The translations under genes and the position numbers were made by a program. The notes beneath the pieces are model-generated. The model was not told the origin of the DNA. It ran no database searches and worked only from the letters and a program-made list of their open reading frames with translations. From Verrucomicrobiota bacterium (lineage in GTDB: Bacteria; Verrucomicrobiota; Verrucomicrobiia; Limisphaerales; JAIPKD01), in NCBI GenBank assembly GCA_021733835.1, contig JAIPKD010000001.1:17516-81515 (forward strand): DNA of 64,000 nt, written 5' to 3'. Below are positions 13,649 through 64,000 of this stretch, piece after piece. Every line of letters begins with the position of its first letter. Position 1 is the first letter of the stretch.

Positions 13649-13676
13649 TTGCAATTAAATCCCTGCTCTTTATAAG
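13649..13676 (+). promoter_or_regulatory. Candidate sigma-70-type promoter of the giant gene
   Basis: TTGCAA (13649-13654) - 16 nt - TATAAG (13671-13676), about 45 nt upstream of the ATG at 13720. This is a pattern match only. Confidence 0.3.
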
Positions 13677-13719
13677 TACAATTCAAAGCCTAATTAAAAT
13701 AAGCAAGAAGACCTTTTTT

Positions 13720-22700: not shown

Positions 22701-25700
22701 GAGCGAGGGCTCGGAATTCAACTTCACGGCTTCCGCCATTGACAGGCCGGGAATTGATGGCTTAGTGCGGGAGGTCTATGGCAATCTGAATGGCGATTCT
22801 TTGGCTGATTTGACGAATGCTCCCATATTCCCCGATCATCCCTCTTCATCTTCAATAATAAACAGCTTTGAGGCGCCCATTGATGTTAATGATAATTATG
22901 GACAGCGGATATCTGGATTTATTGTACCTCCCGTAACTGGCGACTATGTGTTTTGGATTGCCAGTGATGACCAGGGGGCACTGTTTCTAAGCGCGGACGA
23001 CTCACCCGCAAATATATCACAAATTGCCATGGTTAATACTTGGACTTCATCAAGGGAATGGATTAAGTATCCTGAACAACAATCATCACCGATTACGCTG
23101 CAAGCCGGCCGGTACTACTACATTGAGGCCTTAATGAAGGAAGGAGGCGGCGGAGATAATCTTGCGGTTCGATGGCAATTGCCAGACAGCACCATCGAGG
23201 AACCGATTGCCGGAACGCGCTTAAAACATAGTTACAATACTATTTATCCCTATGTGCCGACTCAGGCATTGACTTTCGAATTAGCTCCAGGTGCCCCGGA
23301 AGGAGCTTCTATTGATCCCGTTACGGGCGTATTCAACTGGCAGACTGGTGAATCCCATGGTCCAAGCACGAACTTAATTACAATCAAGGTGACTGATAAT
23401 GGAAGTCCGCCCTTAAGCAGCATGGCGAGCTTCACAATCATTGTAGCCGAAGACAATACGCCTCCGGAACTTGATCCCATCGGCAATCGCACCGGGAGCG
23501 AAGGCTCGGAATTCAACTTCACGGCTTCCGCCATTGACAGCGATGTTCCGGTCCAACCGTTGACCTATTCCTTGGATAGCGGTTCTCTGACTGGGACCAG
23601 CATCGACCTGACTTCAGGCGTCTTTTCGTGGATACCATCAGAAAGCCAAGGGCCGGGCAATTATCCTGTAACGATCCGAGTCAGTGACGGTATCGCGAGT
23701 GATTCTGAGACCATCACCATCACCGTCAACGAAGTCAATATGGCGCCGGTTTTCTCCACGGTTGCGGATCGATCGATTACCGAGGGTAGTTTGCTTAGCT
23801 TTACCGCCACGGCCACGGACGTAGATGAACCGGCGCAGACGCTGACCTTCGGTCTTGGTGAAGGCGCGCCCGCCGGTGCTGCGGTAGATCCGGATACCGG
23901 CGAGTTCACATGGACGCCGACAGAGGCGCAGGGACCGTCGACGAATAGCATCACTATCGAGGTAACAGATGACGGTGAGGCCGCGTTCAGTGATTCGGTT
24001 ACATTCGAGGTGGTTGTCAGCGAGGTTAATGAGGCGCCTGAGATTGATCCAGTCGCTGATCAAACCGTTGACGAGGAGACGATGCTCACCCTCACCGCCG
24101 CGGCCACGGACGTCGATGAACCTGTGCAGACGTTGACCTTCGGTCTTGGTGAAGGAACGCCCGCCGGTGCTGTGGTCGATCCGAGCACCGGTGAGTTCAC
24201 GTGGACGCCGACAGAGGCCCAGGGGCCATCGACGAATAGCATAACGATCGAGGTAACAGATGACGGTGAGGCCGCGCTCAGTGATTCGGTTACATTCGAG
24301 GTGGTTGTCAGCGAGGTTAATGAGGCGCCTGAGATTGATCCAGTCGCTGATCAAACCGTTGACGAACAGACGGTGCTGACATTCACCGCCACGGCCACGG
24401 ACGTAGATGAACCGGCGCAGACGCTGACCTTCGGTCTTGGTGAAGGAACGCCCGCCGGTGCTGTGGTCGATCCGAGCACCGGCGAGTTCACATGGACGCC
24501 GACAGAGGCCCAGGGGCCATCGACGAATAGCATCACTATCGAGGTAACAGACGACGGTGAGGCCGCGCTCAGTGATTCGGTTACATTCGAGGTGGTTGTC
24601 AGCGAGGTTAATGAGGCGCCTGAGATTGATCCAGTCGCTGATCACACATTTGACGAAGAGACGATGCTGACATTCACCGCCACGGCCACGGACGTAGATG
24701 AACCGGCGCAGACGTTGACCTTCGGTCTTGGTGAAGGAACGCCCGCCGGTGCTGTGGTCGATCCGAGCACCGGTGAGTTCACGTGGACGCCGACCGAGGC
24801 GCAGGGGCCATCGACGAATAGCATAACAATCGAGGTAACAGACGACGGCGAGGCTGCGCTCAGTGATTCGGTTACATTCGAGGTGGTTGTCAGCGAGGTT
24901 AATGAGGCGCCTGAGATTGATCCAGTCGCTGATCAAACCGTTGACGAGCAGACAATGCTGACATTCACCGCCACGGCCACGGACGTAGATGAACCGGCGC
25001 AGACATTGACCTTCGGTCTTGGTGAAGGAGCGCCCGCCGGTGCTGCGGTAGATCCGGAGACCGGTGAGTTCACGTGGACACCGACCGAGGCGCAGGGGCC
25101 GTCGACGAACAGCATAACGATCGAGGTAACAGATGACGGTGAGGCCGCGTTCAGTGATTCGGTTACATTCGATGTGGTCGTCAACGAGGTCAATGAGGCG
25201 CCGGAGGTTGAGCCGGTTTCAGACCAAACCGTTGACGAGCAGACGATGCTTATATTCACCGCCACGGCCACGGATGTGGATGAACCGGCGCAGACGCTGA
25301 CCTTTGGTCTTGGTGAAGGCGCGCCCGCCGGTGCTGCGGTAGATCCGGATACCGGCGAGTTTACGTGGACGCCGACAGAGGCCCAGGGGCCATCGACGAA
25401 TAGCATAACGATCGAGGTAGCAGACGACGGTGAGGCCGCGCTCAGTGATTCGGTTACATTCGAGGTGGTTGTCAGCGAGGTCAATGAAGCGCCGGAGATT
25501 GATCCTGTTGCTAATCAGACCGTTGATGAACAGACGATGCTCACCCTCACCGCCGTGGCATCCGACAACGACGATCCGGCGCAAATACTTACCTTCAGCT
25601 TCGCCGACGGCGCACCCGAAGGCGCCGCTATCGATCCGAGCACCGGCGAGTTTACGTGGACGCCGACAGAGGCCCAGGGGCCATCGACGAATAGCATAAC

Positions 25701-44921: not shown

Positions 44922-46497
<1,576 letters not shown>

Positions 46498-46625
46498 TAA
46501 GTGGCCGGTGAAAAATCGGCACACTAGGTCGACTGGAATACACATTCCAGAGGCTTCCTTATCGCACAGTCCAGCTTTTAAAGCCGGTTCTTTTAAATGG
46601 TAGAGAATTAACGTTGTTTAATTCA

Positions 46626-46700
<75 letters not shown>

Positions 46701-46722
46701 ACTGAGTACATCGCCCACAATT

Positions 46723-46799
46723 GGGCCTGTAGCTCAGTTGGTTAGAGCATGCGCTTGATAAGCGCAGGGTCACTGGTTCGAATCCAGTCAGGCCCACCA
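46723..46799 (+). tRNA. tRNA-Ile (GAU)
   Basis: GGGCCTGTAGCTCAGTTGGTTAGAGC ... the anticodon loop is CTTGATAAG, followed by ...GGTTCGAATCC... CAGGCCCACCA. CCA is encoded. Confidence 0.97.
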
Positions 46800-46832
46800 G
46801 AGCTGCAATTTTTATCTGGGACCACCAGGTTT

Positions 46833-46844
46833 GTTCTTTGAAAA
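46833..46844 (+). promoter_or_regulatory. boxA-like element (16S-23S spacer)
   Basis: GTTCTTTGAAAA lies 60 nt upstream of the 23S, the usual position of the spacer boxA. Confidence 0.45.
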
Positions 46845-46907
46845 CTGTACATTGGGCAAAATACAATTCGCTGGATTCTACCGGGAGTTTCTCGGCTAGA
46901 ATAATTT

Positions 46908-49791
<2,884 letters not shown>

Positions 49792-49888
49792 TAAAATCAA
49801 ATATTTTTAAGATCCAAGAAACTACAACGCCCGGTAGAAGCGAGTGTCCAATGTGCAGCTTTCAAGGAACAAAGGTTCCTTAAGGTTT

Positions 49889-50003
49889 TTTGGTGGCTAT
49901 GAAGCGGTGGAACGACCCGATCCCATTCCGAACTCGGAAGTCAAACGCCGCATTGCCGATGGTAGTACGTGTATAGCGCGTGCGAGAGTAGGTTGTCGCC
50001 AAA
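49889..50003 (+). rRNA. rrf: 5S ribosomal RNA
   Basis: The terminal helix is TTTGGTGGC...GTCGCCAAA. The conserved CCGAACTCGGAAGTCAAACGCC and GCGAGAGTAGG blocks are present. Confidence 0.9.
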
Positions 50004-50019
50004 TTTAATTGAAAAAGAA

Positions 50020-51194: not shown

Positions 51195-52547
51195 ATGCCG
51201 GATGATAATCCAATGATTCGAGGTGGAGAAGGATGCTCGTCAAAGATTGCGCTTGTTTTGGGGTCGTTTCTCGGCCTGGTGGTAATCAAATTGGGGAATC
51301 CGATAATCCTGCACTCGATGATCGATGCGCCGGAGGGATTCTGGCAGCTTGTGTTCAGCCCCTGGCCGGTTGAGTGGTTATTGGTGATTCTTATAATAAT
51401 AGTAATCGGAACAATCGCCGATCAACAAGGAGCAAGGCCGTCCTTGGACATCCTAATCTTCAGTCCGTTGCTATGGCTCCTAGTTCAATGGATGAGTCTG
51501 ATATGGACGGTGGATCGTGATTTATCTTTATACACCGCGACGCATTTCACGGCTTGTGTTTGTTTTTTCTTTCTCGGAAGATATGCATTCAACAGGAGGC
51601 CATGCACGTCATACATTTGGTCGGGCATAATAGTCGCGCTTTTTTTTGTAATCTTAATAGGCTGGCAACAGCATTTTTACGGTCTCGAACAATTAAGGAG
51701 CCAGGTTTATCAGCAGGAGAATTGGCAGTCGCTGCCGCCGGAATTCCTGGAAAAGATAGGCAGCAGCCGTATTTTTTCGACGTTCGTTTATCCAAACGCA
51801 TATGCCGGGGCATTACTCCTGTTTCTGCCGAGCGGGGTGTGGGTGTTGTGGAATTCCAAGGCGATTCCCGGCCACGCCGGAAAGTTCCTTGCGGCCCTTC
51901 TTTTAGTTTCCGGCGGCGCATGTCTTGCGTGGACACGATCAAAGTCGGGATGGCTTATCGCGATGTGTATGCTGGCGGCGTCGGGGTTGTTTTTTTTGAG
52001 GATTCGACGGAAGTACAAGATTCTGATTGTAGCCTTGCTTCTGACGATCGGAGGTGCGGGGTTCGTTGTCAGGTATATCGATTATTTTAAAGAGGGCGCA
52101 ACAAGCGTCGGCGCCCGGTTCGATTATTGGAAGGCCGCGGGTGATATTGTTTGGCATCGGCCGCTGACCGGTTCCGGCGCCGGCACCTTTGCTATACCTT
52201 ATGCGGAGATCAAGGCGCCGGAGTCGGAAATGACCCGCCTTGTTCATAACGACTATCTTGAGCAGGCATCCGACTCTGGTATCTTCGGATTTGTTTTTTA
52301 CTGTACATGGATATTGGCGGCGTTTTACTCGATATTTAAGACAAAAGATATCGCGGGGAATGCCTATTCGTTTTGTGTAATGCTCGGATTGACGGCGTGG
52401 TTTTTCCATGGGCTGGTCGAATTCCAGCTGTATATTCCGGCATTGGCGTGGCCGGCTTTTTTCTTGCTTGGACTGATGGTGGGGCCGAAATTCATGGGGA
52501 AAGTTGATGGGCAATCCCGCAGTTGCCGACATAAAATCAACACTTGA
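51195..52547 (+). CDS. O-antigen ligase (Wzy_C) family polytopic membrane protein
   Basis: It has about 10-12 TM helices and a periplasmic loop with RPLTGSGAGTF......VHNDYLEQASDSGIFGF, the O-antigen ligase-like signature. Confidence 0.7.
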   Translation: MPDDNPMIRGGEGCSSKIALVLGSFLGLVVIKLGNPIILHSMIDAPEGFWQLVFSPWPVEWLLVILIIIVIGTIADQQGARPSLDILIFSPLLWLLVQWMSLIWTVDRDLSLYTATHFTACVCFFFLGRYAFNRRPCTSYIWSGIIVALFFVILIGWQQHFYGLEQLRSQVYQQENWQSLPPEFLEKIGSSRIFSTFVYPNAYAGALLLFLPSGVWVLWNSKAIPGHAGKFLAALLLVSGGACLAWTRSKSGWLIAMCMLAASGLFFLRIRRKYKILIVALLLTIGGAGFVVRYIDYFKEGATSVGARFDYWKAAGDIVWHRPLTGSGAGTFAIPYAEIKAPESEMTRLVHNDYLEQASDSGIFGFVFYCTWILAAFYSIFKTKDIAGNAYSFCVMLGLTAWFFHGLVEFQLYIPALAWPAFFLLGLMVGPKFMGKVDGQSRSCRHKINT

Positions 52548-52553
52548 TAATAT

Positions 52554-52994
52554 ATGAAAATACTATTCCTGAACGGGCCGAACTTAAATCTGCTCGGTGA
52601 TCGTGAACAATTGATATACGGTGCGAAGACACTGGCCGATATAGAAGAACTGGTTCATAAAGAAGCGGCGGGTTTGGGCATTGAAACCGAGTTCAGACAA
52701 ACCAACTATGAAGGTGAACTTGTTGATTGGATTCAACAAGGGGCGGAATCACATGATGCGATCGTGCTGAACGCCGCCGCTTATACTCATACAAGTATAG
52801 CGATACGCGATGCAATAGCCGCAATCCTCGCGCCGGTGATAGAAGTTCATATCTCCAATGTCTATGCGCGCGAAGGCTTCAGGCATAAGTCCATGGTCTC
52901 GCCGGTCTGTTCCGGGGTGATAGCCGGTTTCGGTGCTGCTTCGTACTTATTGGGGCTGAGGGCAGCCGTTGCGGTACTTAATTCGGCCAAGTAA
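52554..52994 (+). CDS. aroQ: Type II 3-dehydroquinate dehydratase
   Basis: MKILFLNGPNLNLLGDRE...YG, then HTSIAIRDA and EVHISNVYAREGFRH. The product is 146 aa. Confidence 0.95.
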   Translation: MKILFLNGPNLNLLGDREQLIYGAKTLADIEELVHKEAAGLGIETEFRQTNYEGELVDWIQQGAESHDAIVLNAAAYTHTSIAIRDAIAAILAPVIEVHISNVYAREGFRHKSMVSPVCSGVIAGFGAASYLLGLRAAVAVLNSAK

Positions 52995-53145
52995 GTTTTA
53001 TAGTCGAGAACGCTTTTTTTCGGTTCATCTTTGACATAATTTGAATTGATGGGCAAAGTTTGAGCCTGAAAGAACCGTACCGGGTTTAGAGGTTCGGGAA
53101 AGGTTGAGACGGAACGAACCGGCCCGGATAAAATAAGTTGGAGAT

Positions 53146-54420
53146 ATGGCAGAATTAGTTGGAAATCTTTTGGTTGCACAGTCGGGCGGGCCTACAGTGG
53201 CCATAAACGCAAGTATAGCCGGCGTTATTCAGGAAGCCGGTAAACACCCGGATACTATCGAGGAGATATATGGCGGCGCGAACGGAATATATGGGATACT
53301 TAACGAAGACTTAATCGATCTTAACGAAGAAAAGGCGAGGAACATCGAGGGCTTAAAGTCTACGCCGGCCGCCGCTTTGGGGACATGCCGGTACAAGATC
53401 AATTTCGATAAAGAACCCGAGAAGGCGGCTAAGGATATGGATCGCCTGTTCCAAGTGTTCGAGGCGCATAATATCAGATACTTTTTCTACGCCGGCGGGA
53501 ATGATTCGCAGGATACGTCGAATAAGATTCACGAAGAAGCGCAGAGGCGCGGGTATGAGCTTAATGTCATCGGAATCCCCAAGACCATAGACAACGATTT
53601 ACCTTACACTGACCATTGTCCGGGATACGGGTCGGTAATCAAGTACAACGCGGCTACCGTGATGGAGGTTGCCTTTGATGTGGCCAGTATGGCGACGGAT
53701 CAGGGATCGTGCTGCGTGATCGAGGTCATGGGCCGCGCTGCAGGTTGGATAGCAGCCGGGACGGTTTTGGCGAAACGCGAGCCGTCCGATGCACCGCATA
53801 TCATCCTTCTGCCGGAAATCCCGTTCAAGGAACAAGCGCTTCTGGAGAAGGTGAAAGAAACCGTCGCCGAAAACAAATACTGCATTGTCGTTGTCGGCGA
53901 AGGCTTGAAAGACGAAGAAGGCAAAGAACTCGGGGCCGAGGACGCGCAGGTGGACGCCTTCGGACATAAACTGTTGTCCGGCTCCGGAGAGCGCCTGGCT
54001 AAGATTATTCAGAACGGCATCGGCACGAAGACGCGCTCGGTGAAGCTTGGCTACGCTCAACGCGCCGCAGCGCACTGCGGCAGTGCGACCGATATTGAAG
54101 AAGCCGCTGCCTGCGGCGAGAAAGCGGTTCGCGCAGCCGTAGAAGGCAACAGCGGATACATGGTTAAGCTGGTGCGCAAGAGCAGCGATCCTTACGAATG
54201 GACGACAGAGTTGCATCTCCTCAGCGAAGTGGCGAATGTCGAGCACACGATCCCACGGGACTGGATAACCGAGGACGGGTTTTTGCCGAACGAGAAGTTC
54301 GTCGAGTTTGCCAAACCGTTGATTTTTGGAGAATTGAAACTTAATTGGAAAGACGGCCTGCCAAGGTTCGTCAGGCTCGAAAAGAATCTGGTTGAAAAGA
54401 CCCTTCCGGATTATATGTAA
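53146..54420 (+). CDS. pfp: 6-phosphofructokinase, ~420-aa PfkA-family type, predicted pyrophosphate-dependent
   Basis: VAQSGGPTVAINASIAGV, YAGGNDSQDT and IGIPKTIDNDLPYTDHCPGYGS are present. Asp is at the position of E. coli Gly104 and Lys at Gly124, the residues associated with PPi rather than ATP use. Confidence 0.8.
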   Translation: MAELVGNLLVAQSGGPTVAINASIAGVIQEAGKHPDTIEEIYGGANGIYGILNEDLIDLNEEKARNIEGLKSTPAAALGTCRYKINFDKEPEKAAKDMDRLFQVFEAHNIRYFFYAGGNDSQDTSNKIHEEAQRRGYELNVIGIPKTIDNDLPYTDHCPGYGSVIKYNAATVMEVAFDVASMATDQGSCCVIEVMGRAAGWIAAGTVLAKREPSDAPHIILLPEIPFKEQALLEKVKETVAENKYCIVVVGEGLKDEEGKELGAEDAQVDAFGHKLLSGSGERLAKIIQNGIGTKTRSVKLGYAQRAAAHCGSATDIEEAAACGEKAVRAAVEGNSGYMVKLVRKSSDPYEWTTELHLLSEVANVEHTIPRDWITEDGFLPNEKFVEFAKPLIFGELKLNWKDGLPRFVRLEKNLVEKTLPDYM

Positions 54421-54450
54421 TCCGCGTCGGACGATTGACAGCATTTAGAT

Positions 54451-54482
54451 GGCCGCCTTTCTTGGAAGTGCGGCCTTTTTTA
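54451..54482 (+). terminator. Rho-independent terminator after pfp
   Basis: GGCCGC (54451-54456) ... GCGGCC (54470-54475) is followed by TTTTTTA, 30 nt after the stop codon. Confidence 0.65.
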
Positions 54483-54644
54483 TTCCGTCGATTTTGCTTG
54501 ATTGCGCACTTGAGTTTTCGCGGATTCTACCGTAAAAGAATGATCAACCGGATGTTTGATTAGATCGAGTGTATGCGCGATCCTTAAAATAGAATCGTGC
54601 AACTGAGAGTTAATATACCGAGAATAAATTAAATCGCCTGAAAA

Positions 54645-56102
54645 ATGAAAAAGACAATTAATTCCCCGCGCGCAGTAGATTTATTTGATAATCAGATAAA
54701 CCGCCGGAGCTTTGTGAAGGGTTGCGCGGGATGTGCCGCCCTTGCCGTGGCCGCCAAGTACGGATTGATACCGGCGTTCGCCGGTGCGGACGTTGATTTG
54801 TTGCCCAAACAAAAGGCGCGGGTTCGCCTGGTGTTCAGCCATATAAGAAAGGGCACGCCGACCTGGCCGCACTCCGAATACGATTACGCTTCGCGAAAGA
54901 AGGAATTGACCGCGAAACTCCGGGAGTCGTGTCCGGACGTGGAGTTCCTTCCGGCGACTGCGATGAATACGGATGATGCAAAGAAACTGCTCGAGCAGGA
55001 CAAGGATGTGGACGGATACCTCGTGTACATGATGGGGCTTTGGACGGGTGCCCCGATCGAGATCGCCAAGTCGGGGAGCCCAACGCTGTTCGTTGACGAC
55101 TTATATGGTGGTTCCGGCGAATTCCTAATCGCGTATTCGGAAGCAAAGAAGAAAAACCTCAAAGTCGCCGGCGTCTCTTCTTCCGATTTCCGCGACGTGG
55201 TCGACGCGGTCAGGTGCTTTACTACCATCAAGAAACTGAAGCATTCCCTTATCCTGGATGTTACCGATAAAGAGGAGCTTTGGGGAAATCCGGAATCCAT
55301 CACCGACGTGTTCGGCACAAAGATTAAACGGATAACCTCGAAGGAACTGAACAAGGCATATTCAAACGCCGACCTGGATGCCGCGCAGAAGCAACGCCGA
55401 ATTTGGACTCGAAACGCGGCGCGCATAATTGAACCGACAAAGGACGAGATACTTAGGTCCGGGATTATATACCAAGCGATGAGCGACCTGATGACCGAAT
55501 ACAAGGCGCAGGCGCTGGCTATCGATTGTCTTTCCTTGTTTTACGGCGGGAAACTAAAGGCCTACCCGTGTCTCGGCCTATTCCAGTTTAATAACGACGG
55601 ATTAGTCGGAGCTTGTGAAGGCGATCTGCAGTCCACAATCACCATGCTGATCATGAACTACCTCGTTGGATTGCCGGGTTTCATTTCCGATCCGGTAATA
55701 GACACATCAAAGAATCAGATCATATACGCGCATTGTGTCTGTACGAATAAGCCTTTTGGTCACGATGCGCCGTCGAATCCGTATCATATACGCTCGCATT
55801 CCGAAGACCGGCACGGCGCCGCCGTACGGTCGCTCTTGCCGTTGGACGAGATAACAACCACACTCGAATTCAACGCCGAGCGCAAAGAGGTGATCATGCA
55901 TCGGGCCAGGACGGTCGAGAACATCGACGAGCCGAAGGCCTGCAGGACCAAGCTCGCGGCCGAGGTCATCGGCGATATCGACAAGCTGATGACGCATTGG
56001 GATAAATGGGGTTGGCATAGGGTGACCTTCTTCGGCGACCTAAAACGCCGGGTAGAGCACCTGAGCGCTTTGATGGGATTCAAGGTCATCGAGGAGGCGT
56101 AG
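54645..56102 (+). CDS. Tat-signal protein with L-fucose/L-arabinose isomerase-like C-terminal region
   Basis: The twin-arginine motif NRRSFVKG is followed by a hydrophobic region and AFA. The C-terminal half (GLVGACEGDLQSTITMLIMNYL..PGFISDPV ... WGWHRVTFFGDLKRRVEHLSALMGFKV) resembles the FucI/AraA-type isomerase family pattern. The family call is tentative. Confidence 0.45.
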   Translation: MKKTINSPRAVDLFDNQINRRSFVKGCAGCAALAVAAKYGLIPAFAGADVDLLPKQKARVRLVFSHIRKGTPTWPHSEYDYASRKKELTAKLRESCPDVEFLPATAMNTDDAKKLLEQDKDVDGYLVYMMGLWTGAPIEIAKSGSPTLFVDDLYGGSGEFLIAYSEAKKKNLKVAGVSSSDFRDVVDAVRCFTTIKKLKHSLILDVTDKEELWGNPESITDVFGTKIKRITSKELNKAYSNADLDAAQKQRRIWTRNAARIIEPTKDEILRSGIIYQAMSDLMTEYKAQALAIDCLSLFYGGKLKAYPCLGLFQFNNDGLVGACEGDLQSTITMLIMNYLVGLPGFISDPVIDTSKNQIIYAHCVCTNKPFGHDAPSNPYHIRSHSEDRHGAAVRSLLPLDEITTTLEFNAERKEVIMHRARTVENIDEPKACRTKLAAEVIGDIDKLMTHWDKWGWHRVTFFGDLKRRVEHLSALMGFKVIEEA

Positions 56103-56141
56103 AGACATTTTTGAGCGGCCACATAATATCGAAAGTATAAA

Positions 56142-57170
56142 ATGAACTTGATTCCTGTCTTTATAAGGTATCGGGGAATAGCGGCTGTTATGCCGTTTGC
56201 TCTGGCGTGGTTTTTCTTTGTCCCTGTGGTGAACTCATTCGCGTCGGACGAAGATCAATTCTTGAATCCGGTGGTGGAGAAGGGCGCCGATCCGTGGGTG
56301 ATATTCCAAGAAGGCGAGTACTACTACTGCTTTTCATCGAGGAATAGGATTTGGATCGCACGCGCCGGGAAATTACATGAAATAGGGCGTGCGGAGAAAA
56401 AGGCGGTCTGGAATCCGCCGCCGGATGCCGAATATTCAAGAGAACTTTGGGCGCCCGAGCTGCATCTGCTGGACGGTAAATGGTATATATACGTCGCCGC
56501 CGATGATGGTGATAATTATAACCATAGTATGTACGCGCTCGAACGCGCGGACGCCGACCCCCTGGGGCCGTTCACTTTCAAGGGAAAGGTTGCGGCGCCC
56601 CCCGATAAATGGGCCATTGACGGTACTGTCCTGGAAATGGGCGGTTTGCTCTATTTCATTTGGTCCGGATGGGAGGGAAATGTAAATGTCCGACAGAACC
56701 TGTATATCGCCCCCATGTCGAATCCATGGACTATCTGCGGGGAGCGAGTTTTGATTTCACGGCCTGTGTTCGATTGGGAAAAACATGGTGACCCGCTCGT
56801 GAATGAAGGCCCGGAGGTGCTGAAAAAGGATGGCAAGGTTTTCATAGTTTATTCTGCGAGCGGTTCTTGGACGGATCACTATTGCCTCGGTATGCTCACA
56901 CTCTCAGGAACGGAACCGTTGAAGCCCGGCGCTTGGAAGAAACATCCCGAGCCGGTGTTCGAGTCCACAGAGGATGTGATTGCGCCCGGTCACGCCTCGT
57001 TTGTACATACGACGGGTGGCGAGGATTGGATCGTTTATCATGCCGCCAAGTATAGCGGCGCAGGGTGGAACAGGAATGTGCGAATGCAAAGAATCCATTG
57101 GAGCGAATCGGGTTTGCCTGTTTTCGGCGCGCCGGTTTCGACAAATATGCCGTTGGACATTCCCGAATAA
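56142..57170 (+). CDS. Glycoside hydrolase family 43 protein (secreted)
   Basis: It has a signal peptide. GADPWVIFQEGEYYYCFS, LWAPELHLLDGKWYIYVAADDG, EGPEVLKKDGKVFIVYSAS and GHASF match the GH43 five-bladed propeller motifs, including the catalytic Asp/Asp/Glu contexts. Confidence 0.85.
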   Translation: MNLIPVFIRYRGIAAVMPFALAWFFFVPVVNSFASDEDQFLNPVVEKGADPWVIFQEGEYYYCFSSRNRIWIARAGKLHEIGRAEKKAVWNPPPDAEYSRELWAPELHLLDGKWYIYVAADDGDNYNHSMYALERADADPLGPFTFKGKVAAPPDKWAIDGTVLEMGGLLYFIWSGWEGNVNVRQNLYIAPMSNPWTICGERVLISRPVFDWEKHGDPLVNEGPEVLKKDGKVFIVYSASGSWTDHYCLGMLTLSGTEPLKPGAWKKHPEPVFESTEDVIAPGHASFVHTTGGEDWIVYHAAKYSGAGWNRNVRMQRIHWSESGLPVFGAPVSTNMPLDIPE

Positions 57171-57226
57171 GCGCATGTTTAATAATCGCCGGCGAATATC
57201 ATACAAGGAGGAATAAGAGCGAAGTC

Positions 57227-57925
57227 CTATATATCCAGGGGAAGGTTATTCTCTCCTTCATCGGCCGGCTCGATGCATTTCGGGGAATCGTTCCGCGGCG
57301 AATTCATGAACCGCGAGACTCGGGAGTACGATAACCTCGAAGACGGAAACGGCGCGAGGATGTTACTAAGTTCTTCAGGGGTGATGATGTTTCCCGAGAG
57401 CCATGTATCCTCGGAGGCCTGGTCGAGGATAGCCGGCATCCGGTTATGGATGGGCGCCATGATTTCATTCGGTGTTACGGTAATTAGAGCGAATGTCTGT
57501 AAGAGTAGGCCGGTTGTAGGATCGTTGTGTTCTTCCCACAGCCCGGCGAAACCGAACAGCGCACCGCCGTCTACGGTGAAATAACAAGGCGTTTTCGCAT
57601 TCCCTTCTTTCTTCCACTCGTAGAAGCCGTCTGCGGGGATGATGCAACGCCGGTGCCTGAACGCGGACTTGAACGAGGCCTTCGAGTTGATGGTTTCCGC
57701 GCGGGCGTTGATAAGTGGTTTGGTTTGTGTCGCGTCTTTTGCCCATGAGGGGATGAACCCCCATTTAAAGAATTGAATGCCGCGCGCGCCGTTGTTTGTG
57801 ATGACCGGCGCGAGTTGCGACGGCGCAATATTATAACGCGGTTTGAGATTGTTCGCGGCGGTGTTCAGTTTGAACCTTTCCGTGACGGCCCTCCCTGATT
57901 GATGCAATGTATAGCGTGCGCACAT
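57227..57925 (-). CDS. SOS response-associated peptidase (SRAP/YedK family)
   Basis: The N-terminal MCARYTL carries the catalytic Cys2. The product is 232 aa, and ...GFYEWKK... is the family motif. Confidence 0.9.
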   Translation of the reverse strand: MCARYTLHQSGRAVTERFKLNTAANNLKPRYNIAPSQLAPVITNNGARGIQFFKWGFIPSWAKDATQTKPLINARAETINSKASFKSAFRHRRCIIPADGFYEWKKEGNAKTPCYFTVDGGALFGFAGLWEEHNDPTTGLLLQTFALITVTPNEIMAPIHNRMPAILDQASEDTWLSGNIITPEELSNILAPFPSSRLSYSRVSRFMNSPRNDSPKCIEPADEGENNLPLDI

Positions 57926-58041
57926 AGGGATCGGATTCTATTGGTTTAGTCGATTGAATATTTTGTTAAGCTCTTGATGGTTGAATATCCATTGAATCGG
58001 CGGTTCTCGTCAACGTAGAATGAGTAAGTCGTTGTGGGTTT

Positions 58042-58827
58042 TCACCGGGCGCTCGATAATGGATTGTCGATTTCCGCAACTATTACTTCGATTCCTTTTG
58101 ATCGAAGTTCGCGGACAAGTCCGGCCGGCGCCTTCGAGTCGGTGATCACCATGTCGACCTGATCGAGGTTGCATAAGAATGACACGGATTTGCGATTGAA
58201 CTTACTGCTGTCCATGCAAAACACCACCTTGCTCGCGGCGCGTATCATGGCGCGTTGAATGCCGATGAGGAGTCCGTGCGAATTCGTTATGCCGTCGGAT
58301 GTGATCCCGCCTGCGCCCATTATTGCAATGTCCGCATGCATTTTTCCGAACGCCTCCACCGCCAGGGGGCCGACTAGGACGCCGAGTCTCGGGTAAACCA
58401 CGCCGCCGGAGACGATTATCTCCGTCAGTGCCGCGGATGCGAACAGGTTGGCGACCGGGAGCGAGTTCGTGATTATCTGGAACCTGGTATCCTCCAGGTG
58501 CTTGGCGACATGGTAAACCGTAGTCCCTGCGTCCATGATAATTGTATGCCCCGGTTCCAGCAATCCCGCGCAGACCCGTCCGATGGCGCTTTTCTCGGAC
58601 ATCTGCCGTGTATCGCGGGAGGTGAATATGAATTCGTCTGTGCGTGGATTTATGATCCTTGCGCCGCCATGGGTTCTTCTTACCGTACCAGCCGCCTCCA
58701 GCGCCGTGAGGTCGCGTCGGACGGTCGACTGTGAAGCGTTTACATGCTCCGCCAGCTCTTCCAGCGATGCGAACTCGGTCTTCTGAAGATAGGTTTCAAT
58801 AAATTTCCTGCGTGCTTCCGGTTGCAT
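58042..58827 (-). CDS. DeoR/GlpR family transcriptional regulator
   Basis: The N-terminal HTH is SLEELAEHVNASQSTVRRDLTALEAAGTVRRTHGGA, followed by a DeoR C-terminal sugar-phosphate-binding domain. It is divergent from the BMC operon. Confidence 0.9.
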   Translation of the reverse strand: MQPEARRKFIETYLQKTEFASLEELAEHVNASQSTVRRDLTALEAAGTVRRTHGGARIINPRTDEFIFTSRDTRQMSEKSAIGRVCAGLLEPGHTIIMDAGTTVYHVAKHLEDTRFQIITNSLPVANLFASAALTEIIVSGGVVYPRLGVLVGPLAVEAFGKMHADIAIMGAGGITSDGITNSHGLLIGIQRAMIRAASKVVFCMDSSKFNRKSVSFLCNLDQVDMVITDSKAPAGLVRELRSKGIEVIVAEIDNPLSSAR

Positions 58828-58925
58828 TAGTGATAGAATATGAGAGATTATGAAAAAAATTGCAACATTCGATTTGACACCGGGCTGGATTTTGAGAGAA
58901 TCCGTACAAATTGGTTGGTTTGTTT

Positions 58926-59606
58926 ATGACGACTCAGACACAAATACCGCCGAGGGCGACCATCGAGCACATGGTCAGGCAGCTGGTTTATGCCCGGCTT
59001 GGCAAGGAGCTGCCGCGGTCGGCCAATGCGCCGCATCCGCTGGTAGTGAATGTGAGCGCGCGGCATTGTCATTTGACTGCGGAGGCGGTTGAGGCGTTGT
59101 TCGGCGCCGGACATGAATTGACGCCTTTCAGGTGGTTGTATCAGGAGGGGCAATTCGCGGCGAAGGAGACGGTGACGTTGATAGGGCCGCGGAGCAGGAT
59201 TATTTCGAATCTTCGGATTCTGGGGCCGTGCAGGTCGTTGAACCAGGTTGAGCTGGCATATACGGATGCCGTGGCATTGGGATTCGATGTGCCGTTGAGG
59301 ATTTCGGGAGACATCGAAAACACACCCGGCTGCATGTTGATGGGGCCGTCGGGTTTCTTGAAGATGGATAAGGGTGTGATCCGCGCCATGCGTCATGTGC
59401 ATATGGATGCGGAGGATGCGGCATTTTACGGGGTCAAGGACGGTGCGAGTATGAAGCTTCGGGTTGGGGGTGATTGCGGTTTGACCCTCGAGAAGTTGCT
59501 TGTGCGGGTCAAGCCCGAGTTCAAACTCGAGGTGCACATCGATACCGATGAAGGTAATGCCTGCAATCTCGGTGCGGCGACGCCGTGCGAATTGATCGGT
59601 GATTGA
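58926..59606 (+). CDS. pduL: PduL-type phosphotransacylase with N-terminal encapsulation-peptide-like helix
   Basis: The two PduL repeats are VNVSARHCHL... and IRAMRHVHMD..., with ...HIDTDEGNA. The ATG at 58926 is preferred over the TTG at 58911. Confidence 0.9.
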   Translation: MTTQTQIPPRATIEHMVRQLVYARLGKELPRSANAPHPLVVNVSARHCHLTAEAVEALFGAGHELTPFRWLYQEGQFAAKETVTLIGPRSRIISNLRILGPCRSLNQVELAYTDAVALGFDVPLRISGDIENTPGCMLMGPSGFLKMDKGVIRAMRHVHMDAEDAAFYGVKDGASMKLRVGGDCGLTLEKLLVRVKPEFKLEVHIDTDEGNACNLGAATPCELIGD

Positions 59607-59667
59607 GATGGATTTGAAGTTTAGTTAATTATAATTCAGAGAAAAACAATCAAATAAGGAAACAAAA

Positions 59668-59964
59668 ATGAGTGAAGCACTAGGCATGATCGAGACCAAG
59701 GGGTACGTCGGCTGCGTTGAAGCCAGTGACGCCATGGTCAAGGCGGCCAATGTAAGCCTCGTCCGAACCATTCCGATTGGAGGCGGGCTTATAACGGTAT
59801 TGGCAAAAGGCGACGTCGGCAGTATTAAGGCGGCCGTCGATGCCGGCTCGAAGGCGGCCGGCAGAGTCGGCGAGTTAGTAAGCGCGCATATCATTGCGCG
59901 TCCACACGAGGAACTGACCAAGAGTTTTATGAGCAGCGGTTCCTCGGCCAAGCAATCCAAATAA
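59668..59964 (+). CDS. BMC-H shell protein (Pfam00936-type hexamer)
   Basis: EALGMIETKGYVGCVEASDAMVKAANVSLV...GDVGSIKAAVDAG...HIIARPH. Confidence 0.95.
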   Translation: MSEALGMIETKGYVGCVEASDAMVKAANVSLVRTIPIGGGLITVLAKGDVGSIKAAVDAGSKAAGRVGELVSAHIIARPHEELTKSFMSSGSSAKQSK

Positions 59965-59997
59965 ACATCAATAAAAACGATTACGACAGGAAATCCT

Positions 59998-60273
59998 ATG
60001 GTTCAACAAGCGATTGGAATGATAGAGACCAAAGGTGTTTGCGCCATGATCGAAGCGGCGGACGCCGCGCTGAAGGCGGCGAACGTGGTCTTTACCGGAT
60101 GGGAAAAGATCGGCAGCGGATACGTGACGGCCTTTTTCCGTGGTGATGTGGCCGCCGTAAAGGCGGCGACAGACGCCGGCGCCGCAGCGGCGGCGCAGGT
60201 GGGACAGGTGATCAGTGTCCAGGTCATACCGCGGCCGCACGAAGATTTGTCGATACTCGGCAAATGGCTATAA
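59998..60273 (+). CDS. BMC-H shell protein
   Basis: [29 protein letters not shown]...[13 protein letters not shown]...VIPRPH. Confidence 0.95.
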
Positions 60274-60300
60274 CGCGAACGGTTAGTGAGTGAGAGGCGC

Positions 60301-61494
60301 ATGAAAATTCTCGTAGCCAATCTCGGTTCGACATCGCTCAAGTACCGCCTATTCGATTGCTCCGGCGGCGAGGAGCGCATGTTGACCCGTGGCGGGTTCG
60401 AGAGGGTTCAGGAGTACTCCGAGGCGATAGACTCGTGCCTGGATGAATTGAAGTCCGGCGGCTGGATAAGCGACGAAAGCGAACTGGCGGCGGTCGGATT
60501 CAAGCCCATCCTCGCCAAAGGTATCACCGGCTGTGTGTTAATGGACGAAGCAGTCCTGGCCGCAATGGAGGAATGCAATTGTATCGCGCCGGCGCACAAT
60601 CCGCCGTATGTGGAGGGTGTGCGCAAGTTCGCCGGCCGGATGCCGGAGACGCCGATGATTGGTTTGTTTGAGACTGCGTTTTACCAGTGGGCGCCCGAGG
60701 AGGCCATGCGCTACGCGGTTCCGGAGCAATGGTACGAGATGGGGGTCAGACGCTGGGGTTACCACGGCGCCAGCCACAAGTTTATAGCGGAGCGCTCGGC
60801 CGAGTTGCTGGGACGCGATGACGTGGCGGCGCGCTCCAGGACGCTGTATGTGAACAACGGGGGAGCGGAATTACGCGGAACCGATTTGCGCGTTATTTCC
60901 TGCCACCTCGGCGGCAGCTCTTCGATCACCGGCATACTAAACGGCGCCGGTATTGGCAACAGCCTCGGTATGAGTCCGCAGTCCGGATTGCCGCACAATA
61001 ATCGCGTAGGCGACCTTGACTCGTTCGCCGTGCCTTTCATCATGCGCCGTACCGGCTGCGATGTTGCCGAGGTCGAACGCATGCTCTGCAAGGAGTCCGG
61101 TCTCAAAGGGCTTTCCGGCGGGTTCAACGATCTCAGAGATGTCTTGGAACGCGCGGCACACGGTGACGCGCGGGCGCAGCTCGCCTTTCGCGTTCTAGTG
61201 CACCATGCGCGGCATTGGATAGGCGCCTTCCTTGCGGAACTCAACGGCGCGGACGCGATCGTATTTACCGCGGGCATAGGCGAGAACAATCCGCAGGTGC
61301 GCGATGCCGTCTGTCGTGGACTCGATCAGTTGGGTGTGAAACTTGATGCCGACGCAAATAGTATCGCCACCGGGATCGAAAGGAAGATCAGCGCCGCCGA
61401 CTCGCCGGTTCAGGCTTGGGTGATACCCACCAACGAGGAGCTGGTAATAGCGCGTGAGGCGAAGCGTTTTTTGGAATGTAGAAGTGGTACATGA
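60301..61494 (+). CDS. ackA: Acetate kinase
   Basis: MKILVANLGSTSLKYRLFD, then RWGYHGASHKF and SCHLGGSSSITG, then FTAGIGENN. The ATG at 60301 is preferred over the GTG at 60286. Confidence 0.95.
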   Translation: MKILVANLGSTSLKYRLFDCSGGEERMLTRGGFERVQEYSEAIDSCLDELKSGGWISDESELAAVGFKPILAKGITGCVLMDEAVLAAMEECNCIAPAHNPPYVEGVRKFAGRMPETPMIGLFETAFYQWAPEEAMRYAVPEQWYEMGVRRWGYHGASHKFIAERSAELLGRDDVAARSRTLYVNNGGAELRGTDLRVISCHLGGSSSITGILNGAGIGNSLGMSPQSGLPHNNRVGDLDSFAVPFIMRRTGCDVAEVERMLCKESGLKGLSGGFNDLRDVLERAAHGDARAQLAFRVLVHHARHWIGAFLAELNGADAIVFTAGIGENNPQVRDAVCRGLDQLGVKLDADANSIATGIERKISAADSPVQAWVIPTNEELVIAREAKRFLECRSGT

Positions 61495-61570
61495 CCGGCG
61501 GTGATTTTCGGTAAATGAAAATTGATTTAGGTTAGAAGGCAATAAATTAAAAGAATAAGTATTTAATATT

Positions 61571-61864
61571 ATGGCACAAGAAGCTATTGGAATGTTGGAA
61601 ACACGCGGGCTCGTCGCCCTGGTGGAAGGGACCGATGCCATGCTCAAGGCGGCCAACGTGACGTTGGCGGGGCCGATGACACAGGTCGGAAACGCGTTCG
61701 TTACCGCCGTGGTTATCGGCGATGTCGCGGCGGTCAAGGCCGCCACGGACGCCGGAGCCCAGGCCGTCAAGAACATCGGCGGCGAATTGGCCAGCGTGCA
61801 TGTGATTGCGCGGCCGCATTCGGATGTGGACGCGGTTCTGCCCCGTAAATCAACCGCCAAGTAA
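61571..61864 (+). CDS. BMC-H shell protein
   Basis: EAIGMLETRGLVALVEGTDAMLKAANVTL...[13 protein letters not shown]...VIARPH. Confidence 0.95.
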   Translation: MAQEAIGMLETRGLVALVEGTDAMLKAANVTLAGPMTQVGNAFVTAVVIGDVAAVKAATDAGAQAVKNIGGELASVHVIARPHSDVDAVLPRKSTAK

Positions 61865-61869
61865 CGCGT

Positions 61870-62199
61870 ATGTTTCTGGCTCGTGTAGAAGGCGCCGTGG
61901 TCGCCACCAAGAAACATGAAGCCATGAGCGGGCGTAAGCTCTTGCTCCTGCGGCCTCAGGTGGTGAATGACAAAGACCCGTCGCGGTTGAAGCCGGGATC
62001 GAATACGATCGTGGCCGTGGACAGCGTGGGCGCGGGCGAAGGCGAGCTGGTGATGTTCTGTCAGGGCAGCTCGGCGCGACTCGCGCAGAGCCTGAAAGAG
62101 GCGCCCGTGGATGCGGTCATCATCGGCATAGTCGATTCCGTGGACGTTCTGGGTAAACAGATATTCAATGCCCGTGAGCGTTACGCCGACGGCGAGTGA
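61870..62199 (+). CDS. BMC-P vertex protein (EutN/CcmL/PduN family)
   Basis: MFLARVEGAVVATKKHEAMSGRKLLLL...VAVDSVGAGEGELVMFCQGSSAR...DAVIIGIVDSV. Confidence 0.9.
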   Translation: MFLARVEGAVVATKKHEAMSGRKLLLLRPQVVNDKDPSRLKPGSNTIVAVDSVGAGEGELVMFCQGSSARLAQSLKEAPVDAVIIGIVDSVDVLGKQIFNARERYADGE

Positions 62200-62300
62200 A
62201 AGTGAGCGCCATGGCGAAGCCGGAATTGAGTTCCTTCGAACTCTGTTAATGCCGGCTCGGGCGTGTGGAATGTCGTGAATTCAAGCATTGGGGTTTTATA

Positions 62301-63800
62301 ATGACTCATCACAATATCAATGAAGAACTTATAAAGGATGTCGTCGAAGAAGTCCTCGGACGTCTGGGGCATTCTTCCGGAGATGCCGCAGCCAAGCCGG
62401 CGCCGGCGCAGAGCGGCAATCCCGCCGTGGCGCCGTCGATTACGACGCAGACCGCTACAGGCGGCAGGAGGTTCGGCGTCTTCCAGGACGCAAGAAGCGC
62501 GTGTGCCGCCGCGGCGGTTGCGCACGAGCAGTTGAACGAGAAGGGTGTAGACGGACGCAGGCGGGTTATCGATATCGTGAAGACGCTTGCCGATAAAAAC
62601 TCCGCCGAGTGGGGACGGATCGAGCTCGAAGAGAGCGGCATCGGTCGGCTGGATCATAAGATCGAGAAGCTGAAAATAATCAAGCTCGTCCCCGGCGTCG
62701 AGTTTTTGCATCCGGAAGGGATGAGCGGTGATCATGGGATTACACTTGAGGAATATACGCCGTTTGGTGTGATAGGCGCTATTACGCCGTCGACACATTC
62801 GATCCCCACCATCAGTGGAAACGTTGTGAGCATGGTGGCGGCGGGCAACGCCGTCGTGTTCAATCCGCACCCCGGCGCCAAGCGCTGTGCGGTTACGGCG
62901 GTTCGCGCATACAACGAGGCGATATACCGCGAGCTGGGCATCGAGAATCTGATTTGTGTTATCGAGGAGCCGACGATCGAGTCTTTCAAGGGCATTTGCG
63001 AAAGCGACGCGGTGGGATTGCTCTGTGTCACCGGCGGCCCCGGAGTGGTGAAGGCGGCGATGAAGACGGGCAAGCGCGCCGTTTGTGCCGGCCCCGGCAA
63101 CCCGCCTGTTCTCGTGGATGAAACGGCGGACATCAATCGCGCCGCAAACGGTGTAGTGACCGGCGCGGCTTATGACAATAATCTGCTTTGCATAGGCGAG
63201 AAGGAGGTATTCGTTCTCGAGTCCGTTGCCGATTCGTTTATGCAAAGCTTGGAGAAGAACGGCGGATTCCGGTTGAATGCCGATCAATGGTCGCGGCTTA
63301 CGAAGGAGGTATTTACGTTTAAAGAAGGCGAGGGCGCGGGCTGTCCGATGCCGGTGTTGAATAAGGCGATGGTCGGCAAGGACGCAGTTTATCTGGCGCG
63401 CATCGCCGGCGCCGCCGCACCGGCGGGGACGGAAATACTGTTTGCCGAGACCGGCGCTGATGATGCGTTCGTCGAGGAAGAGCAGATGATGCCCGTGGTT
63501 CCTGTCGTTCGCGTCAAGAGCGTGGAGGAAGGGATCAGCGCCGCGAAAAAGGCCGAACACGGTTTTAAGCATACATCGATCATTCATTCGCATGATGTGA
63601 GTCGGATGACTGCAATGGCCAGGGCGTTGAAAACGACGTTGTTCGTCAAGAACGGCCCGAGCGTAGCAGGTCTGGGCATAGGCGGCGAAGGATACTTGAG
63701 TTATTCGATAGCGACGCCGACCGGCGAAGGGATCACGAATCCTAAGACCTTCACGCGCGTACGCAGGTGCGTCATGGTCGATAATCTCCGTATTTATTAG
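62301..63800 (+). CDS. Acylating aldehyde dehydrogenase (PduP/EutE-like) with N-terminal encapsulation-peptide-like helix and Ala/Pro linker
   Basis: The ALDH core includes AGNAVVFNPHPGAKRC, GGPGVV and the catalytic-Cys context NNLLCIGEKE. The N-terminal EELIKDVVEEVLGRLG is followed by AAKPAPAQSGNPAVAPS. The ATG at 62301 is preferred. Confidence 0.9.
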   Translation: MTHHNINEELIKDVVEEVLGRLGHSSGDAAAKPAPAQSGNPAVAPSITTQTATGGRRFGVFQDARSACAAAAVAHEQLNEKGVDGRRRVIDIVKTLADKNSAEWGRIELEESGIGRLDHKIEKLKIIKLVPGVEFLHPEGMSGDHGITLEEYTPFGVIGAITPSTHSIPTISGNVVSMVAAGNAVVFNPHPGAKRCAVTAVRAYNEAIYRELGIENLICVIEEPTIESFKGICESDAVGLLCVTGGPGVVKAAMKTGKRAVCAGPGNPPVLVDETADINRAANGVVTGAAYDNNLLCIGEKEVFVLESVADSFMQSLEKNGGFRLNADQWSRLTKEVFTFKEGEGAGCPMPVLNKAMVGKDAVYLARIAGAAAPAGTEILFAETGADDAFVEEEQMMPVVPVVRVKSVEEGISAAKKAEHGFKHTSIIHSHDVSRMTAMARALKTTLFVKNGPSVAGLGIGGEGYLSYSIATPTGEGITNPKTFTRVRRCVMVDNLRIY

Positions 63801-63810
63801 GAGCGATTAG

Positions 63811-64000
63811 ATGTTATTGGCGCGAGTTGAAGGAAATCTGACATCGACCCGTAAGCATCCGAGTCTCGATGGGTGGCGGCTGATCGTATGTCAGCCCCTG
63901 GATCACACGCGTCAGCCTAAGGGTGCGCCGGTCGTAGCTATAGACCGGTTGGGCGCGGCGATGCATCATGAGGTGATTGTTTCCTCGGACGGCGCCGCGG
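63811..64000 (+). CDS. Second BMC-P vertex protein (3'-truncated by window end)
   Basis: MLLARVEGNLTSTRKHPSLDGWRLIVCQPL...VAIDRLGAAMHHEVIVSSDGAA. The ORF is still open at nt 64000. Confidence 0.85.
   Translation, partial: MLLARVEGNLTSTRKHPSLDGWRLIVCQPLDHTRQPKGAPVVAIDRLGAAMHHEVIVSSDGAA

Follow-up and report, generated by a model that had tools for sequence, protein, structure and literature searches.

The window analysed in this study is a stretch of 64,000 nucleotides (nt) from the genome of a Verrucomicrobiota bacterium (contig JAIPKD010000001.1 of assembly GCA_021733835.1), and its 3' end (58042–64000) contains a bacterial microcompartment (BMC) locus that is cut by the end of the sequence. 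Genes in this region were called from an open reading frame (ORF) listing combined with Pfam scans, and NCBIfam scores were compared with the curated cutoffs. Judging by gene families, gene content, gene order and host phylum, we conclude that the window very probably holds the 5' three-quarters of a canonical PVM operon, the microcompartment type of Planctomycetes and Verrucomicrobia, in a Verrucomicrobiota genome, with a proposed function in the breakdown of fucose and rhamnose.

The gene at 58042–58827 lies on the minus strand, divergent from the operon, and encodes a DeoR/GlpR-family regulator (Pfam HTH_DeoR, 4e-17; DeoRC, 8e-44). The best NCBIfam matches of this protein were GlpR, SrlR and AgaR, with FucR at 7e-33, and every one of them was under its equivalog cutoff. 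All remaining genes of the locus are on the plus strand, the first being pduL (58926–59606), which encodes a PduL-type phosphotransacylase (PTAC) homologous to PvmB (Pfam PTAC, 1.7e-70). PduL scored 240 bits against NCBIfam PRK15070 (cutoff 209), in a match beginning at residue 40. Gene callers choose the ATG at 58926 as the pduL start codon; the longest ORF would begin with the TTG at 58911. Genes for two BMC-H shell hexamers follow at 59668–59964 (Pfam BMC, 2.3e-25) and 59998–60273 (Pfam BMC, 5.7e-28). They precede an acetate/propionate kinase homologue related to PvmG (60301–61494; Pfam Acetate_kinase, 1.4e-87), which reads MKILVANLGSTSLKY from its called start at 60301, a third BMC-H (61571–61864; Pfam BMC, 5.1e-21) and the first BMC-P shell pentamer of a triplet (61870–62199; Pfam EutN_CcmL, 1.5e-28). 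The first BMC-H protein is 46–49% identical to the two other BMC-H proteins, and the first BMC-P protein is 31–35% identical to the two other BMC-P proteins.

The next gene (62301–63800) encodes a CoA-acylating aldehyde dehydrogenase (AldDh), a PvmJ homologue that matched Pfam Aldedh and NCBIfam PRK15398 (5.7e-178), the model of a PduP/EutE-like subfamily, with 592 bits against a cutoff of 403. Its product of 499 aa, translated from the ATG at 62301, is identical to NCBI proteins MCF7668273.1 and MCF7707330.1. In an exact-sequence look-up the 499-aa form matched contigs and a 511-aa form with a GTG start matched none. The translation contains the stretch LLCIGEKE, the cysteine of which we take to be the PduP/EutE catalytic cysteine. 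A second BMC-P gene is truncated by the window end after 63 codons (63811–64000) and would end at 64098 if whole; its translation begins MLLARVEGNLTSTRKHPSLDGW. Pfam E-values for the listed genes ranged from 1e-17 to 1e-88, and eight neighbouring significant family matches in such an order cannot be due to chance. An earlier reading of the DNA made from the letters alone (the sequence-only reading) had listed these genes with their order and strands, all of which Pfam confirmed. It had also described them as tightly spaced, with no BMC-T gene up to the window end; gaps within the operon are 5–101 nt, and BMC-T was found neither in the window nor in a 4.7-kb extension of it.

The extension came from contig L001 (Logan assembly of SRR12088347), which is 100% identical to the window over 11,700 bases (52301–64000) and reaches 4.7 kb beyond the window end. 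A second contig, L002 (NCBI GCA_021733785.1), is 99.94% identical to the overlapping window sequence. The second BMC-P is complete on L001 (11511–11798, 95 aa; EutN_CcmL, 1.1e-26) and overlaps a third BMC-P gene by 4 nt (11795–12094; EutN_CcmL). The three BMC-P proteins are mutually 27–35% identical and constitute a divergent triplet. Abutting the third BMC-P gene is a gene for a class II aldolase of 356 aa (12095–13165; Aldolase_II, PF00596, 5e-50, residues 94–269), followed by an Ldh/Mdh-family dehydrogenase of the PvmO type (13230–14156; Ldh_1_N and Ldh_1_C). When read from an upstream start, the dehydrogenase has the N-terminus MKVTIIGGGGRVG with a Rossmann motif. A PF00465 (iron-type alcohol dehydrogenase, Fe-ADH) gene was not present in the locus. 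The operon closes with a gene for a conserved protein of 436 aa (14229–15539) in which no Pfam domain was found. Extending the sequence beyond 64000, as had been suggested, showed that PVM gene content continues, and the prediction of a class II aldolase, a reductase and a third BMC-P there was borne out, with the correction that the candidate lactaldehyde reductase is a PvmO-type Ldh homologue and not a FucO-type enzyme. Downstream of the operon is an 85-aa coiled-coil ORF (L001 15629–15886), which lacks homologues throughout the 80 related loci described below and is probably unrelated to the microcompartment.

The signature enzymes of other microcompartments were also sought. Diol dehydratase, ethanolamine ammonia-lyase, a glycyl-radical enzyme and a DeoC plus RpiB pair were absent from 52301–64000 and the 4.7-kb extension, and none was found among the scanned ORFs of at least 180 aa in the remainder of the window. 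A diol dehydratase, ethanolamine lyase or glycyl-radical enzyme downstream would, according to the sequence-only reading, have reassigned the locus to another type; the operon encodes none of the three.

To place the locus among its relatives, we took the best 80 (L003–L082) of at least 552 stretches encoding a relative of the aldolase, with one genome per species, and compared all locus proteins with them by tblastn. These 80 loci are almost all from Verrucomicrobiota, including Limisphaerales, Pedosphaeraceae and a Limisphaera sp. (L069). The order deoR (minus strand), pduL, BMC-H, BMC-H, acetate kinase, BMC-H, BMC-P, AldDh, BMC-P, BMC-P, aldolase, optional Ldh-family gene and 436-aa gene was invariant wherever the contig was long enough. 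This order was found in about 60 of the 80 loci, representing about 60 Verrucomicrobiota species, and 57 loci have deoR in divergent orientation. The Verrucomicrobiota loci compared typically have three BMC-H genes, and an Ldh-family (PvmO) gene was located between the aldolase and 436-aa genes in 35 of the 80. Median identities of the locus proteins to their counterparts were 59–84%, the upper value being that of the second BMC-H with its orthologues. As protein identities to the nearest species were about 59–84%, the genome represents a separate lineage carrying the same locus. Proteins identical to those of the window belong to 'Verrucomicrobiota bacterium' in two NCBI metagenome-assembled genomes, which places the host in a phylum known for PVM loci.

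Three of the cargo enzymes have terminal extensions that fit published encapsulation-peptide positions (PMC4594438). N-terminal encapsulation peptides have been described on PTACs (PMC4594438), and PduL has an encapsulation-peptide-like N-terminal extension of about 38 residues, IEHMVRQLVYARLGKEL. AldDh begins with the helix EELIKDVVEEVLGRL, followed by a low-complexity linker rich in Pro, Ala and Ser. One of the defining features of PVM is a class II aldolase whose C-terminus carries an encapsulation peptide (PMC4207490, PMC4594438); in the present aldolase a variable linker leads to a C-terminal helix, EAEALVQNITDAIIAKM, which is conserved across 24 homologues. Full-length homologues of this aldolase number in the thousands (about 60–67% identity) and extend over the N-terminal domain and the linker to the C-terminal helix EAEALVQxITDxI. 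A hydrophobic-moment scan did not discriminate encapsulation peptides. Two further features of the aldolase were observed. Residues 1–40 correspond to a conserved N-terminal domain of about 40–45 residues (MKxVISAKDVEELLRxGG..LPxDAIxTPSARDLLR) that precedes a variable linker and had no Pfam match, and an invariant Cys-rich motif, LKECELCDNxEWRPGxxC, is found at about residues 300–325, before the C-terminal encapsulation peptide.

PVM loci are described as having an aldolase signature enzyme, a DeoR regulator, an acetate kinase and an Ldh-family surrogate for the alcohol dehydrogenase (PMC4207490), and the Ldh homologue PvmO is predicted to supply the alcohol dehydrogenase function (PMC4207490). 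The catalogue of Sutter et al. reports 285 PVM loci, solely from Planctomycetes and Verrucomicrobia, with a BMC-P triplet and family assignments for PvmB, D, E, G, H, J, K, M, N and O (PMC8217296). The present locus has the metabolosome core of AldDh (PF00171) and PduL (PF06130), both above the curated cutoffs, the signature class II aldolase with a C-terminal encapsulation peptide (on L001), an acetate kinase, a DeoR-family regulator, an Ldh/Mdh-family gene instead of Fe-ADH, and three BMC-H with three distinct EutN_CcmL proteins and no BMC-T. Gene content, gene order, the aldolase in the extension and the host thus all support the PVM assignment that had been made from the letters of the window.

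The characterised system is the pvmA–O locus of Planctopirus (Planctomyces) limnophila (Erbilgin, McDonald and Kerfeld 2014, as summarised in PMC4207490 and PMC8217296). Shared with it are DeoR, the PTAC PvmB, the BMC-H proteins PvmD/E, PvmG, PvmJ, three distinct BMC-P proteins (PvmH/K/M), the aldolase PvmN, the Ldh/Mdh homologue PvmO and a main locus without BMC-T, as well as the relative gene order, assuming that the alphabetical pvm names follow gene order. P. limnophila has two BMC-H genes, whereas this locus has three, and the conserved 436-aa gene after the Ldh gene is an addition relative to P. limnophila. In addition, P. limnophila is a planctomycete whereas the present host is a verrucomicrobium. 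Published Verrucomicrobiota loci, termed PV-BMC, from Lentimonas, Ca. Fucivorax, Ca. Mariakkermansia and Limisphaera likewise have three BMC-H, three BMC-P, aldolase, AldDh and a dehydrogenase (PMC8857213, PMC8217296, PMC13608581), and Verrucomicrobiota loci with three BMC-H and three BMC-P were reported earlier (PMC8857213). The published marine examples are described as having two contiguous sub-loci, whereas the genes here form one operon; otherwise there is no substantive difference. The locus is therefore of a kind already known and is a routine member of its type. As to function, the P. limnophila genetics tie the PVM locus to induction by, and growth on, L-fucose and L-rhamnose (PMC4207490), the Lentimonas PVM locus is likewise tied to fucose and rhamnose (PMC8217296), and Limisphaera forms microcompartments on rhamnose (PMC13608581).

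The 98-bp spacer between deoR and pduL contains a sigma-70-like operon promoter (58874–58901, plus strand), with a −35 box TTGACA at 58874–58879, 16 nt of spacing and a TG-extended −10 box GAGAAT ending at 58901. It agrees at 10 of 12 positions and was the top promoter-like site within 57900–64000. We aligned the deoR-pduL spacers of the 57 related loci and the window (n = 58), and the TTGAC of the −35 box was the most conserved block. Four tandem 10-bp direct repeats, TGATAGAATA TGAGAGATTA TGAAAAAAAT TGCAACATTC (58831–58870, plus strand), directly precede the −35 box and are separated from the deoR start codon by 3 nt. The repeat consensus, TGGAAGATTT TGGAAGATTT TGCAAGAttt followed by TTGACA, was in register in most of the 58 spacers. 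A position weight matrix for the repeats was built from 49 other loci with the −35 hexamer excluded, and was scored on both strands of the whole window. The top two scores were those of 58839–58870 (31.7 bits) and 58829–58860 (28.3 bits); the next-best score was 15.2, with a background mean of −46 and a standard deviation of 12.8. From its conservation and position, the repeat array is a likely DeoR operator. Because it adjoins the −35 box and lies 3 nt from the deoR start, its occupancy should affect both transcription units. A convincing minus-strand promoter for deoR was not identified by eye.

The chemistry of the pathway was inferred from the characterised P. limnophila system together with the family assignments. 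Genes elsewhere in the genome would supply the enzymes for the first two steps from fucose or rhamnose, isomerisation and phosphorylation, after which the class II aldolase would cleave L-fuculose-1-phosphate or L-rhamnulose-1-phosphate to dihydroxyacetone phosphate and L-lactaldehyde. The shell, made up of three BMC-H hexamers with three different BMC-P pentamers as caps, would retain the lactaldehyde and so avoid poisoning of the cell. Within this scheme the acylating AldDh would convert lactaldehyde to lactyl-CoA and NADH, PduL would regenerate CoA while making lactyl-phosphate, and the acetate kinase homologue would produce lactate and ATP from lactyl-phosphate. The Ldh-family enzyme would reduce a second lactaldehyde to 1,2-propanediol, regenerating NAD+. 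DeoR probably binds the repeat array beside the −35 box and would control the operon and its own gene, by activation, as with FucR, or by repression. DeoR-family regulators generally respond to sugar phosphates, and by analogy the effector here is probably a sugar phosphate.

Several points weigh against this interpretation of the locus. About half of the related loci have no Ldh gene at the position it occupies here, and the NAD+ recycling step is therefore not universal. No fucose or rhamnose isomerase, kinase or permease, fucosidase or rhamnosidase gene was found in the window and its extension, and both the substrate and the induction in this organism are predicted by analogy. Three of the genes, those for the aldolase, the Ldh-family enzyme and the third BMC-P, are beyond the window end and were seen solely on an overlapping contig from the same or a near-identical genome. 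Binding of DeoR to the candidate operator repeats is likewise a prediction from their sequence. Finally, the flavoprotein PvmL (PF02441), encoded between the second and third BMC-P genes in P. limnophila, is absent here.

Among 61 loci reaching far enough downstream, 52 have the 436-aa gene next after the aldolase or Ldh gene, and in 3 more it is slightly farther away (about 90%). Related operons thus keep this gene more often than they keep the Ldh (PvmO) gene. At least 8000 homologues of the protein exist, all annotated as hypothetical and without a Pfam domain, with about 70% identity among the matches listed. It belongs to no Pfam or NCBIfam family, and Pfam scans of 43 homologues were also empty. 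Searches of the PDB with phmmer or with a profile of close homologues returned nothing useful, and an AlphaFold2 (AF2) model from a shallow alignment was poor, with a predicted local distance difference test (pLDDT) score of 49. We then found 1326 relatives among 1.8 billion cluster representatives, including forms of 330–340 aa without the C-terminal extension and two proteins fused to PfkB sugar kinases. One short homologue is encoded in a sugar/polyol operon with an ABC transporter, an FGGY kinase, a zinc-dependent alcohol dehydrogenase, a GlpD-like enzyme and a DeoR regulator.

A diverse profile that included the short forms matched E. coli LsrF over about 80 residues (E 2.7e-4) and M. jannaschii MJ0400, an ADH synthase, with E 0.1; hhalign against E. 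coli LsrF aligned 138 columns, with a probability of 74% and E 2.8e-5. In the 436-aa protein the invariant K242, in the motif FLKI, falls one position from LsrF K203, which is presumably the Schiff-base lysine. In a Foldseek search with the poor model the LsrF and MJ0400 families were at the top, with E-values that were not significant. Shared with LsrF and MJ0400, which are DhnA-type class I aldolases (PF01791), is the C-terminal beta7-alpha7-beta8-alpha8 phosphate-binding region GG...G.T...GR.I. The 436-aa protein is about 140 residues longer, has two insertions and is below the PF01791 thresholds; unlike LsrF and MJ0400, it also has a low-complexity linker and the C-terminal motif DGSPDFxxMTxAQRxxYxxxRLxxxFG. 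With moderate confidence, sequence comparison suggests that it is a divergent DhnA/LsrF-type sugar-phosphate enzyme, as a remote relative.

The C-terminal linker and helix of the 436-aa protein were considered as an encapsulation peptide; the motif is conserved in sequence and basic rather than amphipathic, and this role is considered doubtful. Short homologues are without the C-terminal motif. Distant homologues (in the regions L085 10001–13071 and L088 433–3458; 31–37% identity) carry the same motif, overlap by 4 nt with a gene for a sigma-54 activator containing FHA and GAF domains, and have no microcompartment genes nearby. Since the motif occurs in distant homologues outside microcompartment loci, it is not a microcompartment-specific targeting signal.

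Combining the operator and the closing gene, we tentatively propose, as the less probable outcome, that verrucomicrobial PVM operons include a 436-aa enzyme that might be an LsrF/DhnA-type aldolase or a thiolase-like TIM-barrel protein, together with a DeoR operator of three to four 10-bp repeats (TGGAAGATTT) that would control the operon and deoR. A description of this enzyme or of the repeat operator was not found in the PVM literature that we examined.

The 436-aa protein also bears on the identity of the substrate. The shell and core could be of the PVM type and yet serve a substrate that is not, or not only, fucose or rhamnose; another (deoxy)ketose phosphate would then be used, with the 436-aa protein as a second carbon–carbon bond cleaving enzyme beside the class II aldolase. 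Retention of its gene in 52 of 61 loci (plus 3), above that of the Ldh gene, is in line with this possibility, as are the convergence of the profile, hhalign and poor-model Foldseek results on LsrF/MJ0400, the PfkB-fused homologues, the short homologue in a sugar/polyol operon, the described promiscuity of class II aldolases (PMC4207490) and the lack of fuc or rha genes nearby. However, the P. limnophila genetics and the Limisphaera microcompartments formed on rhamnose connect fucose and rhamnose with loci of this type (PMC4207490, PMC13608581). Moreover, the LsrF homology is weak and confined to between a third and a half of the protein at its C-terminal end, the pLDDT of 49 marks the AF2 model as poor, and the C-terminal motif occurs beside a sigma-54 activator outside microcompartment loci. 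On balance we regard a different substrate as unlikely and retain fucose and rhamnose as the proposed substrates of this PVM operon.

The genes upstream of deoR had been taken, together with the microcompartment operon, as a deoxy-sugar/polysaccharide utilisation neighbourhood. These genes encode a 485-aa protein without a Pfam domain (54645–56102, plus strand), a glycoside hydrolase family 43 (GH43) protein (56142–57170; Pfam, 3.8e-58) and, between GH43 and deoR, a YedK-like SOS-response associated peptidase (SRAP; 57227–57925, minus strand). The predicted structure of the 485-aa protein (pLDDT 88) has an AraA/FucI fold, nearer to AraA (E 3e-20, TM-score 0.68) than to FucI (about E 1e-14), with 11–14% identity to AraA/FucI enzymes. 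Its match to the NCBIfam sulfoquinovose isomerase SftI was weak and partial (48 bits, cutoff 700). It carries the twin-arginine (Tat) signal NRRSFVK and its homologues are named Tat-signal proteins, unlike the cytoplasmic FucI. The description of this gene as FucI-like therefore holds at the level of the fold and fails for FucI itself, to which neither the sequence family nor the cellular location corresponds; judged from the model, the protein may at most resemble AraA/FucI superfamily members in its action. Its own family counts more than 4000 proteins in Planctomycetota, Verrucomicrobiota and Bryobacterales, and a Tat signal is odd for a sugar isomerase.

A single co-functional deoxy-sugar/polysaccharide island of GH43, the FucI-like gene and the microcompartment operon is improbable. 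The isomerase fold of the 485-aa protein and the confirmed GH43 match are compatible with an island, and both genes are less than 4 kb from deoR. However, the 485-aa, GH43, SRAP and PFK genes had no homologue within 10 kb of the operon in the 80 related loci. The SRAP gene, being on the opposite strand between GH43 and deoR, breaks any operon link from the upstream sugar genes to the microcompartment locus, and the Tat signal sets the 485-aa protein apart from cytoplasmic FucI. GH43 is not known as a family of fucosidases or rhamnosidases; the main substrates of its enzymes are polymers of arabinose and xylose. The surrounding genes, including the rest of the window, are housekeeping (an rRNA operon, ClpB, PPDK, type II secretion genes and a DNA polymerase III subunit). 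The neighbourhood proposed in the sequence-only reading is thus not upheld.

Other metabolosomes also contain aldolases. The Firmicutes PVM-like and GRM5 loci resemble the present locus in their DeoR regulator, in a class II aldolase that ends in an encapsulation peptide and in the predicted substrate, fucose/rhamnose, whereas their AldDh, PTAC and BMC-P are of the GRM5 type, their gene order is wholly different, and GRM5 has an additional glycyl-radical diol dehydratase (PMC4207490, PMC8217296). PF00596 aldolases that end in an encapsulation peptide are common to the PVM-like, GRM5, MUF2, ACI and SPU5 types, of which MUF2 matches PVM in its enzyme set and comes nearest to it in AldDh (PMC8217296). 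Assignment of the locus to one of these types rather than to PVM proper is very unlikely, as the window and L001 contain no glycyl-radical enzyme, PF01791/PF02502 pair, 2-hydroxyacid dehydrogenase, BMC-T or multi-domain BMC-H, the host is a verrucomicrobium, the BMC-P triplet with two to three BMC-H, DeoR, acetate kinase and Ldh fits the PVM description, and the gene order is that of dozens of Verrucomicrobiota loci.

Elsewhere in the window, a complete rRNA operon is present on the plus strand (44922–50004), with 16S at 44922–46489, 23S at 46908–49791 and 5S at 49889–50004, and with tRNA-Ala (46626–46700) and tRNA-Ile (46723–46799) on the same strand in the spacer between 16S and 23S. A 4321-aa ORF (13618–26583, plus strand) contains He_PIG, Long Rib, PKD, Big_9, PA14/GLEYA, CBM6 and right-handed beta-helix domains, and its product is probably a surface adhesin or glycan-binding protein. 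The segment 2001–4000 has a G+C content of 0.40, compared to about 0.52–0.58 elsewhere, includes adjacent ORFs (2025–2693 and 2703–3389) without Pfam matches, and may be foreign DNA. A 208-aa ORF (5659–6285, plus strand) had a partial, sub-threshold match to GH43 (29.7 bits, cutoff 32.2) and may be a GH43 fragment or a divergent domain.

Hundreds of genomes with PVM microcompartments have been catalogued, and it is established that Verrucomicrobia and Planctomycetes use these organelles in the turnover of fucose and rhamnose, as in fucoidan and algal and plant glycans, such that one more locus adds little to this picture. It does mark the organism as a likely consumer of methyl-pentoses. The candidate DeoR operator is directly testable and useful to specialists. 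If our proposal for the 436-aa enzyme is true, the enzyme could provide a second point of carbon–carbon bond cleavage, supplying the organelle or broadening the range of its substrates. The retention of so widespread an aldolase-like gene without annotation suggests that, in Verrucomicrobia, the five enzymes of the accepted PVM pathway are not the complete set.

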